The notes: a model not told the origin generated them from the letters alone. 15,243 nt of DNA from Elainellaceae cyanobacterium (GCA_051117555.1 JBNPEG010000237.1:1-15243), one strand, 5' to 3'; positions 9,662 through 15,243 are shown, counted from the stretch's first letter. Made by a program: numbers and translations.

Positions 9662-11368
9662 CTAGAAGCTGAACGTCGTTCTGAGGTGACCAATGATCGC
9701 ATCATCATTATCGTTGTCGTTGAACGGATCGTTGATCCAAACAACGCTAGGTGTGATGGAGATGAAATCATTCAGGCGATACCGATAGAATCCTTCAAGC
9801 AAAAAGCTTGTGTCATCTCCGAAATCGTCATCTCCGGTAAACTCACGGCTATAGGTCGGAACACCTGCTAAGACACCAATCATGTTGCCTTCGCCCAACA
9901 CATCGTTGATAGCTAACGTGCCTTGGTAGCTCCAGGTTTCATAGTCAGGGTTAGCTCCGATACCGTTGACATTCGCGTAGAAAATTCCGCCACCGATTTC
10001 GAAGATGTCTAACTTAACGTTAAACTGACCACCGTAGTAGTTACCCACTTGAGGACCATCGCCAAAAATTAACCCATCACCCGCGTAAGAGTTGGAGTAG
10101 GTCAAAGCAGCATCTATGAAATCACTCAAGAAAGTCAACTGAGCGATTCCACCGTAGTCGCCATTAAATAAACCCGCACCGGGGCTAGGATCAGAGGGTT
10201 CACCCGATGAATAACCAAAGTCGAGGCTGAGGGCATCAGTGATTTGAATAATCGCACCTGCACCTGCATCACCAGGAATGAAGTTGTACTGAGGAGGGAA
10301 ACCAAAGTTGCTGATGCTGCCGCCACCAGAGCTATCCAAGGGGCTGATCGTACTAACTACGTAGTCATCTGCACCGATGCTGTTTGCGCCAATGGTAATT
10401 GCAGCAACGTCAAGGAGTGTGAAGGTGTAGACCAAATCGTCAAGGACAAAGTCACCGCCGCCACCACCGCTGAAGGAGCGACCAATTGGGTCAGAGGAGA
10501 AATCGGGAAGATCACGAGCCTGGAAGCGAGTTCTCAAGCGATCTTCACCCGTAAAGCTGGTATCAAAGTTCATACGAACCCGATAGCCAAAGGTGGTCTC
10601 ATCATCAAAGCCGTCAGGCTCATCAATCGGAACTTCCTGAGCAAAGATGACTTCAGCATTCAGCTTGGTGGTGGTAGAAAACTGGTTTGCTTCGACTTCA
10701 GCCACGCGAGCTTCTAATGCATCAACCCGACCGCGAAGCGTTGCTAGCTCAGCCGCAAACTCTTCCTGCAACCGCTGAAGAACAGCCAAGTCTTCACGGG
10801 TGACAACGTCAGCTAGACCTGCTGCAATCAGTTCATTGATGCGGTCTAAACACGCATTCATACCAGCCGCAAACTCATACCGAGTCATCGCCCGGTTACC
10901 GCGATAGGTTCCGTCGGGATACCCTGCGATACAACCATAGCGCTCAACCAGCGATTGCAGAGCTTGGAATGCCCAGTCAGTCGGTTGAACGTCAGATAGC
11001 TGAGAAATCGATGTCACCTGTCCTAGAGAATTGACGGTGCCCTCGCTGCTATATTCTTGAACCTGGTTCAAGAAATAAACGCTGTCGTCTTGAGCGTCTG
11101 CGCTCTCTTCGAGAGAAGACGCAGATGGCTCAGCAGGCACACCAGCCAGTTGAATGGGCTCAGCGCTAGCGGACTGTTCTAAGTTTTCACCATCGAAAAC
11201 GGAAATTTCCTCAACGTCGGAAATCTCAGCCAACTCAGGCAAGAATGCGTCGCTCGATTCACTAGACTGGGAAGTCTCAGACGCGATCGCAGACGTAGAA
11301 GCAATCAATGTAGCCGTTAAGACTGCTGGAGTAACCAGCAATGAATTCCATAAAATCTTAGGCAGCAT
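9662..11368 (-). CDS. Cyanobacterial outer-membrane porin (SLH domain + OprB-like barrel; SomA/SomB, 'iron uptake porin' family), copy 1
   Basis: Signal peptide, QVTSISQLSDVQPTDWAFQALQSLVERYGCIAGYPDGTYRGNRAMTRYEFAAG SLH region, coiled coil, QFSTTTKL barrel start and terminal Phe (RTTFSF). ATG 11368 follows the GTGTGAGGA RBS. Confidence 0.93.
   Translation of the reverse strand: MLPKILWNSLLVTPAVLTATLIASTSAIASETSQSSESSDAFLPELAEISDVEEISVFDGENLEQSASAEPIQLAGVPAEPSASSLEESADAQDDSVYFLNQVQEYSSEGTVNSLGQVTSISQLSDVQPTDWAFQALQSLVERYGCIAGYPDGTYRGNRAMTRYEFAAGMNACLDRINELIAAGLADVVTREDLAVLQRLQEEFAAELATLRGRVDALEARVAEVEANQFSTTTKLNAEVIFAQEVPIDEPDGFDDETTFGYRVRMNFDTSFTGEDRLRTRFQARDLPDFSSDPIGRSFSGGGGGDFVLDDLVYTFTLLDVAAITIGANSIGADDYVVSTISPLDSSGGGSISNFGFPPQYNFIPGDAGAGAIIQITDALSLDFGYSSGEPSDPSPGAGLFNGDYGGIAQLTFLSDFIDAALTYSNSYAGDGLIFGDGPQVGNYYGGQFNVKLDIFEIGGGIFYANVNGIGANPDYETWSYQGTLAINDVLGEGNMIGVLAGVPTYSREFTGDDDFGDDTSFLLEGFYRYRLNDFISITPSVVWINDPFNDNDNDDAIIGHLRTTFSF
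10662..11020. repeat. 359-bp direct repeat, copy 1 (identical to 12761-13119)
   Basis: Base-by-base comparison found no mismatches from AGCTTGGTGG to ATGTCACCTG. Confidence 0.93.
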
Positions 11369-11374
11369 TCTTCG

Positions 11375-11386
11375 TGTCCTCACACC
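11375..11386 (-). promoter_or_regulatory. RBS region / putative Yfr1 sRNA target site of porin 1
   Basis: mRNA GGUGUGAGGACA is complementary to 9 nt (UCCUCACAC) of the conserved Yfr1 motif ACUCCUCACAC. The same 12-mer occurs at porin 2. Confidence 0.6.
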
Positions 11387-11685: not shown

Positions 11686-13545
11686 TTAGAATTTGAAGAC
11701 GGTTCTCAGCGTACCGATGATCACATCATCGTTGTCGTCCACATTGAATGGGGAGTCAATATAAATCACGCTAGGCGTAATTGTGATGAAATCATTAATT
11801 GGGTAGCTGTAGAATCCTTCAATCAGAAAACCGCTATCTGAAGACTGGTCATCAAGGTCGCGAGTGTACGTTGGAACACCGCCGACAACGCCCAGACGAG
11901 CGCCTTCTACAAGCAAGTCGTTTAGGGCAAGCGTCCCCTGATACGTCCAGGCTTCGTAGTCTGGGAGTGCGCCGATTCCGTTGACTTGGGAAAAGGCAAT
12001 GCTTCCTCCCACCTCAAGGAAATTATCAAATAGCTTGAAGTTAAACGCACCGCCATAGGTATTGGCAACGGCTGGACCATCAATATCGTAAACATTATCG
12101 ATTCTCTGGAGGTCGCTCGTGGGTGAATATGAGTTGACATAGGTCAAGCCAACATCGACGAGGTCGCTCTCAAACGTTAGCTGACCAATCGCACCATAAT
12201 CACCGTTAAATAGACCGCTTCCTCCTTCAGGGTCTGATGGATCATCCGCGACATAACCGCCTTCAATCAAAACGGCAAAATCGTCGTTCTCGATCAGTGC
12301 AACCGAAGCACCAATTCCTGCGCCACTGCCAGGGAAAGCTTGTTCGTAAACGCCTACGTCGCCAAATTCGCTGATTGAACCACTGCTCGAACTAGACAGA
12401 GGCGTGATGTCATTGACCGGATCATCGATATCAAGTCCGGTGGCACCGATCAGAATTTCAGCCCGGTCGAATAGAGTGAACGTGTAGATCAAGTCATCCA
12501 GAGCAAAATCATTCCCCTCGTCGCCTCCTGCGTTGAAGCCCAGTGGGTCATCAGGAAAAGTGTCGCCGATATCGTTTTCAAAGTTTCCAGCTTCAACACT
12601 GGTTTCTAACTCATCTTCACCCGTAAAACTGGTGATGAAGTTCAAACGAACCCGATCGATGAAGACGGCTTGGTCACCATCGTCGATATCGTCTCCGCTT
12701 GCCGTCACGTTGCCATCATCAACCCCAATGGCAGATACAAGGAACTGCACCTCACCTTCAAGCTTGGTGGTGGTAGAAAACTGGTTTGCTTCGACTTCAG
12801 CCACGCGAGCTTCTAATGCATCAACCCGACCGCGAAGCGTTGCTAGCTCAGCCGCAAACTCTTCCTGCAACCGCTGAAGAACAGCCAAGTCTTCACGGGT
12901 GACAACGTCAGCTAGACCTGCTGCAATCAGTTCATTGATGCGGTCTAAACACGCATTCATACCAGCCGCAAACTCATACCGAGTCATCGCCCGGTTACCG
13001 CGATAGGTTCCGTCGGGATACCCTGCGATACAACCATAGCGCTCAACCAGCGATTGCAGAGCTTGGAATGCCCAGTCAGTCGGTTGAACGTCAGATAGCT
13101 GAGAAATCGATGTCACCTGCCCTAGCGATTCAGAGTCTCCATTCGTGTTGTAAAACTGAACCTGATCGAGAACGTCTTCAGTTGACTGCTCACTAGACTC
13201 TGAACCCATCACAGGTTCGTCCTGAACCGTAGCCGGTTGCTCCATAGCACCTTCAGTACCCTCTAAAGATTCAGCCTCTAAAGGTTCGATTTGGTGAGTA
13301 TCGAGCGAGTCACTCGATTCAAATTGATTGTCTGCTCCATTGTCTGTCTCAACGTCCACAGGCTGATCGGCAACTTGAGCAAGTTCGAAATCTCCACCCA
13401 ATAGCTCAGAGACATGATTCGTAGCGAAGTCGGACCCAGAATCAGATTGAGTTTCTGAGGCGATCGCCCCCGCTTCAGAGACAACAAATATACCAACAAA
13501 AACCGGTGTAACAAGCAATGAATGCCACAAAAATTTATTACTCAT
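11686..13545 (-). CDS. Cyanobacterial outer-membrane porin (SLH + OprB-like barrel), copy 2
   Basis: MSNKFLWHSLLV signal peptide, long acidic linker, same SLH/coiled-coil block as copy 1 and terminal RTVFKF. ATG 13545 is preferred over the ORF-track start 13635 by parallel with copy 1. Confidence 0.93.
   Translation of the reverse strand: MSNKFLWHSLLVTPVFVGIFVVSEAGAIASETQSDSGSDFATNHVSELLGGDFELAQVADQPVDVETDNGADNQFESSDSLDTHQIEPLEAESLEGTEGAMEQPATVQDEPVMGSESSEQSTEDVLDQVQFYNTNGDSESLGQVTSISQLSDVQPTDWAFQALQSLVERYGCIAGYPDGTYRGNRAMTRYEFAAGMNACLDRINELIAAGLADVVTREDLAVLQRLQEEFAAELATLRGRVDALEARVAEVEANQFSTTTKLEGEVQFLVSAIGVDDGNVTASGDDIDDGDQAVFIDRVRLNFITSFTGEDELETSVEAGNFENDIGDTFPDDPLGFNAGGDEGNDFALDDLIYTFTLFDRAEILIGATGLDIDDPVNDITPLSSSSSGSISEFGDVGVYEQAFPGSGAGIGASVALIENDDFAVLIEGGYVADDPSDPEGGSGLFNGDYGAIGQLTFESDLVDVGLTYVNSYSPTSDLQRIDNVYDIDGPAVANTYGGAFNFKLFDNFLEVGGSIAFSQVNGIGALPDYEAWTYQGTLALNDLLVEGARLGVVGGVPTYTRDLDDQSSDSGFLIEGFYSYPINDFITITPSVIYIDSPFNVDDNDDVIIGTLRTVFKF
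12761..13119. repeat. 359-bp direct repeat, copy 2 (identical to 10662-11020)
   Basis: Base-by-base identity with copy 1, offset 2099 bp. Confidence 0.93.
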
Positions 13546-13556
13546 GTCCTCACACC
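13545..13556 (-). promoter_or_regulatory. RBS region / putative Yfr1 sRNA target site of porin 2
   Basis: mRNA GGUGUGAGGAC-AUG directly abuts the start codon. Confidence 0.6.
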
Positions 13557-13698
13557 CAAACAACTCAAAAGTTATGAAATAGCTCCGCTGACACAGCGAT
13601 TGTGATTGTTCAACCGAAGCATTTCTTCTTTCCAAAGAGAGATATAAAACAACAGACTGAGTTGAGCCTGAGAAAAAAATTAATTCGACATATAGAAA

Positions 13699-14060: not shown

Positions 14061-14342
14061 CTACTGAATACCCGAAATGACGTTAGCCATTTCAAAGTCA
14101 CTGTCCGTTAAGCCGCCAGCATCATGACTGGTCAACTCAATGGTTACCTTGTTGTAAGAGATTGAGATGTCAGGGTGGTGTCCTGCTGCTTCTGCGGGCT
14201 CAACTAAACGGTTCACGAAATTGATAGCTTCTACAAAGTCCTTAAACTCCCGGGTACATTGAATTTTTTTACCCTCAACTGACCAGTTAGGGAGCTGGTT
14301 AGCCCGCTGTTGAGCATCAGATTGACTTAATAATTGCGCCAT
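14061..14342 (-). CDS. phhB: Pterin-4-alpha-carbinolamine (4a-hydroxytetrahydrobiopterin) dehydratase
   Basis: FKDFVEAINFVNRL, AEAAGHHPDI and LTSHDAGGLTDSDF motifs; 93 aa. Confidence 0.92.
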   Translation of the reverse strand: MAQLLSQSDAQQRANQLPNWSVEGKKIQCTREFKDFVEAINFVNRLVEPAEAAGHHPDISISYNKVTIELTSHDAGGLTDSDFEMANVISGIQ

Positions 14343-14642
14343 AGCAATCAGTCCCCATTATTTATACATACTGCTGTCAGCGCGATCGCAAACTAGGTTG
14401 CAACCAGCGCTACACTTTATAGCCTATAGACCTTATAACTCAGTTACAAGGTTAATCTGTCTATGGGATAGTTCTTTGGCAGTCGATGGGTTGACGTTTA
14501 AGGCAGCCGCATTCATGCGCAGCCACGCTAAGTTGAAGCCATGCAGTAGCAGGTATTTATCATCCGCCCTTCTGCCTCCTGCTTCTCAAGCATCCTCTAA
14601 AAGCTTTGTACCTAGCTCGATGCCTCTTTAAGATGTCTCTTT

Positions 14643-14953
14643 AAAAAGCTATCCGCTCTTACCATCAACGAACAAGTACGAACTTGAACGTCTTATCGGT
14701 AAGAGCGGTGTAGCGGGTCTTCAAGTTGAACTAGACTGCCGGGAGGAACTCTAGGTTATCCCAGCAATGCCTTCAAAAGGCAAACAGCTGAACTCTAGAG
14801 AGCAGCCCCGGCACACAGCCAGTTAATTTCAACTTGGAGACCCATACATTTACTACTATCTTGCATGGGCATCACCTCCTTGTTCCCTAAGTGGATATGT
14901 CTCAAAAGGACACTCATCAAGGATTTACCTTAATGATCAGGCTCATCTGCCTT
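14643..14953 (-). ncRNA. Candidate structured RNA / small-peptide mRNA (unassigned family)
   Basis: Nested inverted repeats at 14648-14714, 14715-14843 and 14840-14870; extended -10 TGTTATTCT at 14960-14968; T5 tract at 14643-14647. Boundaries are inferred. Confidence 0.45.
14795..14866 (-). CDS. Putative small peptide MQDSSKCMGLQVEINWLCAGAAL (23 aa)
   Basis: AAGGAGGTGAT (14871-14881) is a perfect complement of the 16S 3' end, with GGAGG 8 nt before ATG 14866. In-frame alternative ATGs at 14872 and 14917. Confidence 0.45.
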   Translation of the reverse strand: MQDSSKCMGLQVEINWLCAGAAL

Positions 14954-15001: not shown

Positions 15002-15031
15002 AAAAAAGGCTCCCTGCAAACGCAGGGAGCC
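15002..15031 (-). terminator. Intrinsic terminator of psbD
   Basis: Perfect 10-bp stem GGCTCCCTGC-aaac-GCAGGGAGCC, followed by T6 on the minus strand. Confidence 0.88.
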
Positions 15032-15085
15032 AAACTGTGGAATCTTAATTACCCTGTCAAAGGTTGAGCATTATGCTGAACAACT

Positions 15086-15243
<158 letters not shown>

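Follow-up and report, generated by a model that had tools for sequence, protein, structure and literature searches.

The DNA analyzed here is a stretch of 15,243 nt from an Elainellaceae cyanobacterium (GCA_051117555.1, JBNPEG010000237.1:1-15243). This whole stretch, called the window below, is an entire contig (C3) and ends inside psbD. Between the 3' end of psbD and a gene for a pterin-4a-carbinolamine dehydratase (PCD), its minus strand carries a single-copy RNA gene that is almost certainly the local homologue of Ncl0160, a published small RNA (sRNA) widespread in cyanobacteria. The RNA has its own, unusually conserved intrinsic terminator, a covarying long irregular hairpin, and an invariant strong Shine-Dalgarno (SD) sequence with its AUG; a short open reading frame (ORF) extends along the 5' side of this hairpin and terminates close to its apex. 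The SD and short frame on which an initial annotation had been centered are the 5' part of this RNA gene of about 250–300 nt, which runs on the minus strand from roughly 14.9 kb to 14643. The features of the locus are the following:

14643..14896, minus strand: whole conserved RNA gene (Ncl0160 homologue), the block from just 5' of the SD to the U-run of the terminator.
14871..14881, minus strand: SD sequence AAGGAGGTGAT / AAGGAGGUGAU, an 11-nt perfect complement of the 16S 3' tail.
14795..14866, minus strand: ORF of 23 codons, MQDSSKCMGLQVEINWLCAGAAL, at 14866-14798, with the stop codon TAG at 14797-14795; the in-frame ATG at 14872-14870 would give 25 aa.
14715..14843, minus strand: long fold-back with helices P1 (GGGUC/GACCC), P2, P3, P4 (GCCGGGG/CUCCCGGC) and P5 (CUCU/GGAG) and a variable apex, from RNAalifold on 107 homologues.
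14643..14713, minus strand: extended intrinsic terminator CUA-CA-CCGCUCUUACC ... GGUAAGAGCGG-A-UAG, then CUUUUU, from an inverted repeat and RNAalifold.
14840..14870, minus strand: alternative start-sequestering hairpin, GCCCAUGCA (14870-14862) with UGUAUGGGU (14848-14840), 9 bp with two G-U pairs around the invariant loop GAUAGUAGUAAA.
14904..14936, minus strand: upstream hairpin and U-run, then a GAGA-type motif (weaker terminator-like site at 14936-14914).
14061..14342, minus strand: PCD gene (PhhB-like), 93 aa, downstream of the RNA (PF01329, E 3.4e-31).
15008..15243, minus strand: 3' end of psbD (D2), stop codon at 15088-15086, and its strong terminator at 15031-15008 (PDB D2 chains, E 2.9e-29, 51 of 51 residues).

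Homologues of the Synechocystis sRNA ncl0160 have been described in 83 genomes (Brenes-Alvarez et al., 2016; PMC4734099). According to the parts of that paper compared here, they contain a strongly conserved region that can be translated into a peptide of 23–25 aa and has a ribosome-binding site before the start; the stop codon is TAA in 47 cases, TAG in 34 and TGA in 2, and the authors regard the frame as "likely translated". For the homologue of Nostoc sp. PCC 7120, the supplement lists a transcription start site (TSS) at 5442335f and an end at 5442618, that is, 283 nt, with 351 reads. Compared by reading, Fig. S1 and Table S3 of the same paper share with the present alignments a series of conserved blocks in the same order, namely SD-ATG, GATAGTAGTAAA, GCCGGGGCTGTTCTCTAA, GTTCCTYCCGGCAGTC, GACCCGCTAGACCGCTCT, and AAGAGCGGATAGTTTTT. 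As in the homologues of Synechocystis sp. PCC 6803 and Nostoc sp. PCC 7120, the SD (14881-14871) is followed by an ATG (14866, or 14872), a frame of 23–25 codons closed by TAA or TAG (here TAG at 14797-14795), a fold-back, and a rho-independent terminator ending in ...GAGCGGATAG and a U-run, the whole RNA measuring roughly 240–300 nt; from SD to U-run the distance is 240 nt in the window and 185–304 nt among the 107 homologues. The genomic setting is different, since the Synechocystis transcription unit (TU) is convergent to slr1608 and antisense into its 3' end (Kopf et al., 2014), in contrast to the position between psbD and the PCD gene found here. What had been annotated as an isolated element is a member of a published family. 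Among the main texts searched, ncl0160 is named only in PMC4734099, which offers a prediction and not a function; no paper was found that links pterin-4a-carbinolamine dehydratase with an sRNA in cyanobacteria, the matches to ssl2296 and 5442335 were all unrelated, and a 2026 screen covering 202 cyanobacterial genomes contains none of the terms psbD, pterin and ncl in its main text. Relative to the parts of PMC4734099 that were compared, the covariation counts, the codon statistics, the short-ORF lineages and the synteny with PCD and psbD are new here.

The family was sampled in two ways. A pattern scan from the SD to codon 6, with one genome per species, returned at least 120 stretches; among the matches listed, every organism name was cyanobacterial, and the rest were unlabelled metagenome bins. 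From 140 loci, 138 usable sequences were obtained and clustered at 95% identity, one being kept per cluster, which gave the 107 homologues. A second set of 43 divergent homologues was taken from covariance-model matches without the selecting pattern, for a total of 150. The covariance model had been built from 27 sequences on a shorter alignment, and it matches the window at 14704-14882 (E 9.8e-57). In 151 genomes sampled evenly from the class, it finds the RNA in 123 genomes and in 71 of 84 genera (103 of the 151 genomes by BLAST alone), with one copy in 122 of the 123 and two in the sole exception; it matches none of 11 genomes in one small-genome family and one of eight in another family. 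DNA conservation across families (70–87% identity) coincides exactly with about 14896-14698, i.e., the SD, the frame and the 3' arm, and this sequence comparison indicates that the element is more than chance. The 6.06-Mb genome contains the 743-nt spacer only once, so that a repeat or mobile element was ruled out, and the spacer is matched in 30 of 41 related genomes, the window's own counted. The 626-nt intergenic RNA folds far better than its shuffles (z −5.0). A search against Rfam gave no match at gathering thresholds, the best sub-threshold ones lying on the psbD terminator, and nothing relevant in E-value mode; ARAGORN detected neither a tRNA nor a tmRNA. The 5' end of the RNA possibly lies upstream of the hairpin at 14936-14904. 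In the Nostocales rows of Fig. S1 of PMC4734099, a comparable hairpin and U-run stand before the SD, and the Nostoc TSS at 5442335 is upstream of this hairpin. The hairpin at 14904-14936 may belong to the 5' end of the RNA or may act as a further terminator of psbD.

The fold-back and the extended terminator are strongly supported by covariation. The consensus structure comprises 49 pairs, and 94.7% of its 5187 cells are paired, compared with 30–51% when the partners are slid; 31 of the 49 pairs change on both sides (13–15 in the slid controls), as do 419 cells (41–69), and none of 500 shuffles reaches any of the observed measures. In the 43 divergent homologues, whose alignment leans toward the covariance model, 90.2% of the cells are paired versus 29–51% with slid partners. 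By mutual information the consensus pairs rank top, and no alternative helix appears in the 107-homologue alignment. Several conserved G-U pairs would turn into A-C if the opposite strand were transcribed, and the RNA is thus read from the minus strand. The fold-back corresponds in the window to a 24-nt imperfect inverted repeat (14715-14738 with 14820-14843), and the second half of the ORF forms its 5' strand. The terminator core is a perfect 11-bp hairpin at 14653-14708 with the U-run after it, the stem being extended by CUA:UAG around a small internal loop; helix 4 of the terminator is 97% paired, with eight pairs changing on both sides, and the terminator is part of the minimum free energy (MFE) structure in 87 of 106 homologues.

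The initial annotation had reported a perfect 11-nt SD, the sequence ATG CCC ATG with an open frame of 23 aa, and a 9-bp hairpin with two G-U pairs that hides the start in competition with the fold-back. The observation itself is confirmed, all coordinates and pairings holding on the minus strand. The SD was found at 14881-14871 and ATG CCC ATG at 14872-14864, the second ATG (14866) lying 8 nt past GGAGG. The SD 11-mer AAGGAGGTGAT has a single occurrence in the window and none elsewhere in the 6.06-Mb genome; a reversed control pattern is equally rare (also once), so that this rarity is the chance expectation. GGAGGTG is invariant in alignment A1, partly owing to the selecting pattern, and a GGAG-type SD with an AUG 6–11 nt behind it is found in 43 of 43 covariance-model matches. 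The longer form of 40 aa that had been proposed from an upstream ATG is not conserved, an in-frame start 5' of the SD being available to such a 40/41-aa N-terminal extension in only 32 of the 107 homologues.

SD, AUG and open frame are kept in all 150 homologues. Among the 107, the frame has 23 codons in 102, 17 in three, 24 in one and 25 in one, and ends in TAA (59) or TAG (48); the 43 divergent homologues all have an SD, an AUG and an ORF of 16–27 codons. The stop UAR is located at the edge of the conserved block. In the divergent set, 48 nt separate the AUG from a conserved anchor in 32 sequences, 51 nt in eight, 60 in one and 47 in two; length changes are therefore mostly multiples of three (nine of 11 variant rows), one genus combining +9 and −6. 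In a deep group (L143, L166-L170), the nucleotide sequence of the N-terminal half is unrelated, with SD, AUG, frame and stop kept and one extra codon before the stop. The peptide itself behaves differently from the frame. Mean column entropy at codon positions 1, 2 and 3 (codons 7–23) is 0.54, 0.62 and 0.68, and the ratio of synonymous to nonsynonymous among distinct variant codons is 21:111 in frame versus 17:97 and 18:101 out of frame; the only in-frame difference is the avoidance of stops (1 vs 9 and 3). The check for codon-level selection thus came out negative, with no third-position excess and a synonymous share no higher in frame, and codon-position statistics give no protein-level purifying selection on the peptide. 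Neither of its Cys residues is conserved among the 107 homologues, and the conserved C-terminus overlies helices P3–P5. In 14 homologues (three of the 107 and 11 of the 43) the stop comes at codon 17–18, in the internal loop between P3 and P4, and these short-ORF homologues retain the helices with compensating changes. The rows L154-L157, L163-L165, L182, L142, L181, L030, L113, and L122, with the stop at codon 18 and a frame of 17 aa, include all sampled genomes of one family. An exact look-up of seven peptide forms in a collection of 15 billion proteins found none of them.

The start hairpin is the local MFE structure in the window (−14.9 kcal/mol, z = −3.07), and one of 200 shuffles is as good. 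In this sequence, CUCC at 14839-14836 additionally engages the SD core GGAG. The competition that had been postulated is borne out, since the basal helix of the fold-back (14843-14715) uses the same GGGU(C), at 14843-14839, as its 5' strand, and modelling agrees. Among the 107 homologues, the inner five GCCCA:UGGGU pairs never vary. Of the next two positions, one can pair in 86 sequences and the other in 101, the U-A pair being lost in 21; at the outer end of the helix, the last two pairs are missing from 61 and 70 sequences, so that the 9-bp form of the hairpin is local. In modelled nascent RNA from SD to stop, the start hairpin has a median probability of 0.76 (above 0.5 in 91 of the 107). 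In the modelled full-length RNA, P1 reaches a median of 0.977 and the start hairpin 0.016 (0.84 and 0.17 for the window). The start hairpin is thus predicted to be dominant only in nascent RNA, and a kinetic masking of the start during synthesis is plausible on these models, although it is rated as less likely than not. Within the loop GAUAGUAGUAAA (within 14844-14858, minus strand), three consecutive stops UAG UAG UAA are found two bases out of frame, and the remaining frame is closed by the UGA inside GGUGAUG.

A further pairing involves the SD. The 5' arm of the terminator, CUACACCGCUCUUA (14698-14713, minus strand), resembles the anti-SD tail of 16S rRNA and can pair with the SD at 14871-14881 as GGAGGU:ACCGCY. 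RNAalifold on a 3'-truncated alignment pairs GGAGGU with ACCGCY, the later terminator 5' arm; on the shorter alignment used for the covariance model, the start hairpin and SD:ACCGCY replace P1, and pair counts on alignment A4 lean that way. The SD:ACCGCY pairing is possible in 94.9% of cells of the 43 divergent homologues, both sides being nearly invariant. By eye, the SD forms with the terminator arm or with the published motif of the sRNA Yfr1 5–6 bp with a mismatch, and no covariation was seen.

Data on expression come from Synechocystis. In Table S1 of Kopf et al. (2014), the read count of the ncl0160 unit TU475 is 76,346 in the dark, 162,252 in the stationary and 1,656,605 in the exponential phase, against 0–1001 for the neighbouring unit TU473. 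In the Grad-seq data of Riediger et al. (PMC8136920), the ncl0160 sRNA peaks in fraction 7 of the sucrose gradient (0.258), and a second population is present in fractions 14–18 (0.08, 0.175, 0.065). The value of 0.175 belongs to fractions 16–17, in which Yfr1 has 0.01 and tmRNA less than 0.01. In addition, the ncl0160 3' untranslated region feature was placed in cluster 16, termed a main rRNA cluster.

The genomic surroundings link the RNA to two genes. PCD is found downstream on the same strand in 50 of the 80 pattern-set loci that have sufficient flanking sequence, and in none of them on the opposite strand. From the SD to the PCD start the distance is 257–1418 nt (median 378); in 23 of the 50 it is 257–333 nt, which places the gene immediately behind the terminator. 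PCD also follows the RNA in 8 of the 43 divergent loci, for a total of 58 of 123. Where the two genes abut in this way, read-through into PCD is likely. In the window, the 300-nt spacer between terminator and PCD (14343-14642, minus strand) is predicted to be structured, and its conservation (88%) is limited to G002, a genome of the same genus. Of the 151 genomes, 148 have PF01329, whether the RNA is found or not, and the co-occurrence of RNA and PCD is consequently uninformative. The window's own genome (G000) has four PF01329 paralogues, on contigs C239, C212, C84, and C3, of which only that of the window adjoins the RNA. In the genome with two copies of the RNA (G043; C329:421-995 and C112:9282-9864), each copy has a PF01329 gene on the same strand about 120 nt later, as if the pair of RNA and PCD had been duplicated as a unit. 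On the other side, the end of psbD precedes the RNA on the same strand in 15 of the 54 loci whose flank reaches at least 1 kb, and in 32 of the 53 that are cut by a contig end. Many homologous loci are located 250–1000 nt from a contig end beside the 3' end of psbD, which suggests that assemblies break in multi-copy psbD. Further downstream, tandem genes for porins of SLH-domain plus OprB type occur at 9662-11383 and 11686-13635 (minus strand); in nine related loci such a gene is the nearest large ORF downstream of the RNA.

The explanation preferred for these observations, to which about an even chance is given, is that of an abundant, ribosome-engaging and translation-coupled regulatory RNA in which translation, rather than the peptide, is kept by selection. 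The frame is probably translated; that selection maintains translatability (SD, AUG, open frame and stop position) and not the peptide is a more evenly balanced claim. The two roles that had been suggested for the element, a ribosome-binding regulatory RNA or a regulated microprotein, together are essentially the proposal of PMC4734099 for this family; the microprotein side is not matched by selection at the level of the peptide. A functional microprotein of 23–25 aa, with an RNA structure that only tunes expression or stability, would nevertheless account for the frame, start and stop in all 150 homologues, for the mostly in-frame indels and for the reappearance of RLCAGAV(x)L at the C-terminus in the most divergent group as well, and translation is favoured by the authors of PMC4734099. 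It is considered unlikely, though the foremost of the alternatives, given the codon statistics, the tolerance of many positions for 5–9 unrelated residues, the unconserved Cys residues, and the failure to retrieve the seven exact peptides. In addition, the conserved C-terminus coincides with P3–P5, which covary as RNA, and in the short-ORF homologues it is lost with the helices kept. The same lack of protein-level selection suits the opposite possibility, a purely non-coding structured RNA whose SD-like site binds another RNA, a protein or the 16S tail without translation, the frame being a by-product of nucleotide conservation. An invariant 17-nt block of SD, spacer and AUG together with the invariant GAUAGUAGUAAA, the strong covariation of the structure, and the possible pairing of the SD with ACCGCY are consistent with this idea. 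It is improbable, however, because an ORF with a correctly spaced AUG is present in every divergent homologue, even where the N-terminal nucleotides are unrelated, because length varies mostly in multiples of three, because the stop UAR is conserved at the block edge (never a sense codon in 102 of 107), and because ncl0160 has a heavy-gradient population unlike Yfr1 and tmRNA (PMC8136920).

Two further models concern the PCD gene and the peptide as a toxin. Leader-peptide attenuators such as trpL, pheL, and ermCL place a short ORF upstream of an intrinsic terminator. The RNA of the window resembles them in this order of elements and in the co-oriented gene that often stands directly behind, and a transcription attenuator of PCD would explain the strict strand bias, the close spacing in 23 loci, the linkage in divergent families and the PCD gene behind each of the two copies in G043. 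Nevertheless, PCD is not adjacent in 65 of 123 loci, nor in the Synechocystis TU record (Kopf et al., 2014), and the downstream gene appears to vary; in the window the terminator and PCD are 300 nt apart. In thermodynamic modelling, the MFE structure includes the terminator in 87 of 106 homologues, and still in 86 when the ORF strand is masked; no antiterminator was detected, and attenuation is accordingly not supported as a general mechanism. In addition, no alternative pairing emerges from mutual information, nothing evident connects the conserved codons (Asp/Glu-Ser-Ser-Lys) with pterin recycling, PF01329 occurs regardless of the RNA, and, unlike in these attenuators, the terminated product is an abundant stable RNA. 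This alternative is therefore considered distinctly unlikely. Type I toxin mRNAs (hok, tisB, and aapA1) combine a metastable 5' hairpin masking the nascent start with a long-range fold-back. The analogy drawn in the initial annotation was based on the over-strong SD with a sequestered start; a predicted nascent start-masking hairpin and a long-range fold-back are found here as well. The peptide is not hydrophobic, however: none of 104 peptides reaches a Kyte-Doolittle mean of 1.6 over 19 residues (the maximum for that of the window is 0.82), and 105 of 107 have a charged residue within the last 12. For lack of transmembrane character a type I toxin was rejected. Such a role is further made extremely improbable by a gene kept at one copy per genome in 71 of 84 genera, against the patchy and often multi-copy pattern of toxins, by a consensus promoter scan that found no plus-strand promoter-like site over the locus, where no antitoxin RNA is seen either, and by the extreme abundance of the RNA in growing Synechocystis (Kopf et al., 2014).

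Several points weigh against the preferred reading, that of a translation-coupled regulatory RNA. Most homologues (107 of the 150) were collected by a pattern demanding the SD, the AUG and codons 3–6, so that the start regions of these 107 are not independent evidence; an open frame of 24 codons has about a one-in-three chance in random sequence, and the argument from indels depends on about eight events. The invariant GAUAGUAGUAAA and the invariant spacer between SD and AUG represent a constraint at the nucleotide level that plain translation does not explain. As regards the switch, the start hairpin has no covariation in either the 107 or the divergent homologues, and P1 is nearly invariant too, so that neither state has covariation support; in one genome (L144) GCGG replaces GCCC, and no change compensates for it. 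The switch hairpin of the initial annotation therefore stands as a structure predicted in nascent RNA, and not as a covarying one or, in its 9-bp form, as more than a local one. Finally, the main text of a Synechocystis Ribo-seq preprint (10.64898/2025.12.20.695498) does not include ncl0160, and a soil metatranscriptome (word share 0.04) yielded only contigs of relatives, over 14795-14894, which are silent on the transcript ends of this organism.

Other known systems share part of this architecture. Dual-function sRNAs, for example SgrS/SgrT, RNAIII/hld, SR1/SR1P, Spot 42/SpfP, and AzuCR, are small, terminator-ended RNAs with a tiny ORF. The present RNA is similar in both respects, its translation being putative; unlike in those RNAs, its ORF and structured core overlap, the sequence of the peptide seems to be unconstrained, and no base-pairing target is known. 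Another parallel is provided by Yfr1 and Yfr2, which are also nearly phylum-wide and carry an invariant single-stranded motif, SD-like or anti-SD-like (PMC4734099, PMC6778093). In contrast to Ncl0160, these RNAs are much shorter and without an ORF, and Yfr1 has almost no heavy-gradient population in the data of PMC8136920. The SD of Ncl0160 and the published Yfr1 motif pair, by eye, over no better than 5 bp.

For the translation-coupled RNA, the following course of events may be envisaged. During synthesis, GGGU(CUCC) would pair with the AUG (and in this window with the SD too) and so hide it; the start would become free when the 3' strand GACCC and the hairpin of the terminator have formed. 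Ribosomes would then load on the SD and translate the mini-ORF, and translation would in turn unzip the fold-back, the conserved C-terminus of the peptide being dictated by the RNA helices. In clades in which PCD starts right behind the terminator, read-through would make the RNA a leader of PCD. In its most complete form, which is speculative and rather unlikely to hold as a whole, Ncl0160 would be a self-timed, ribosome-sensing RNA: nascent SD:ACCGCY and AUG:GGGU masks would be released by P1 and the terminator, translation would periodically unzip an abundant and growth-phase-dependent RNA, and the free and ribosome-bound states would be the output, read-through into a linked PCD included.

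What had been taken for a novel short ORF belongs to a published family that is functionally unexplained, and for this family the analysis offers a testable structure, with covariation-backed helices, translatability without selection on the peptide, natural short-ORF variants and a frequent link to PCD. The family is of some weight in the phylum, being present in most of the cyanobacterial genera sampled and forming, in Synechocystis, a very highly read unit (up to 1.66 million reads in Kopf et al., 2014, Table S1). If the proposal were true, Ncl0160 would represent a class of RNA whose signal is the act of translation, with the peptide as a by-product.

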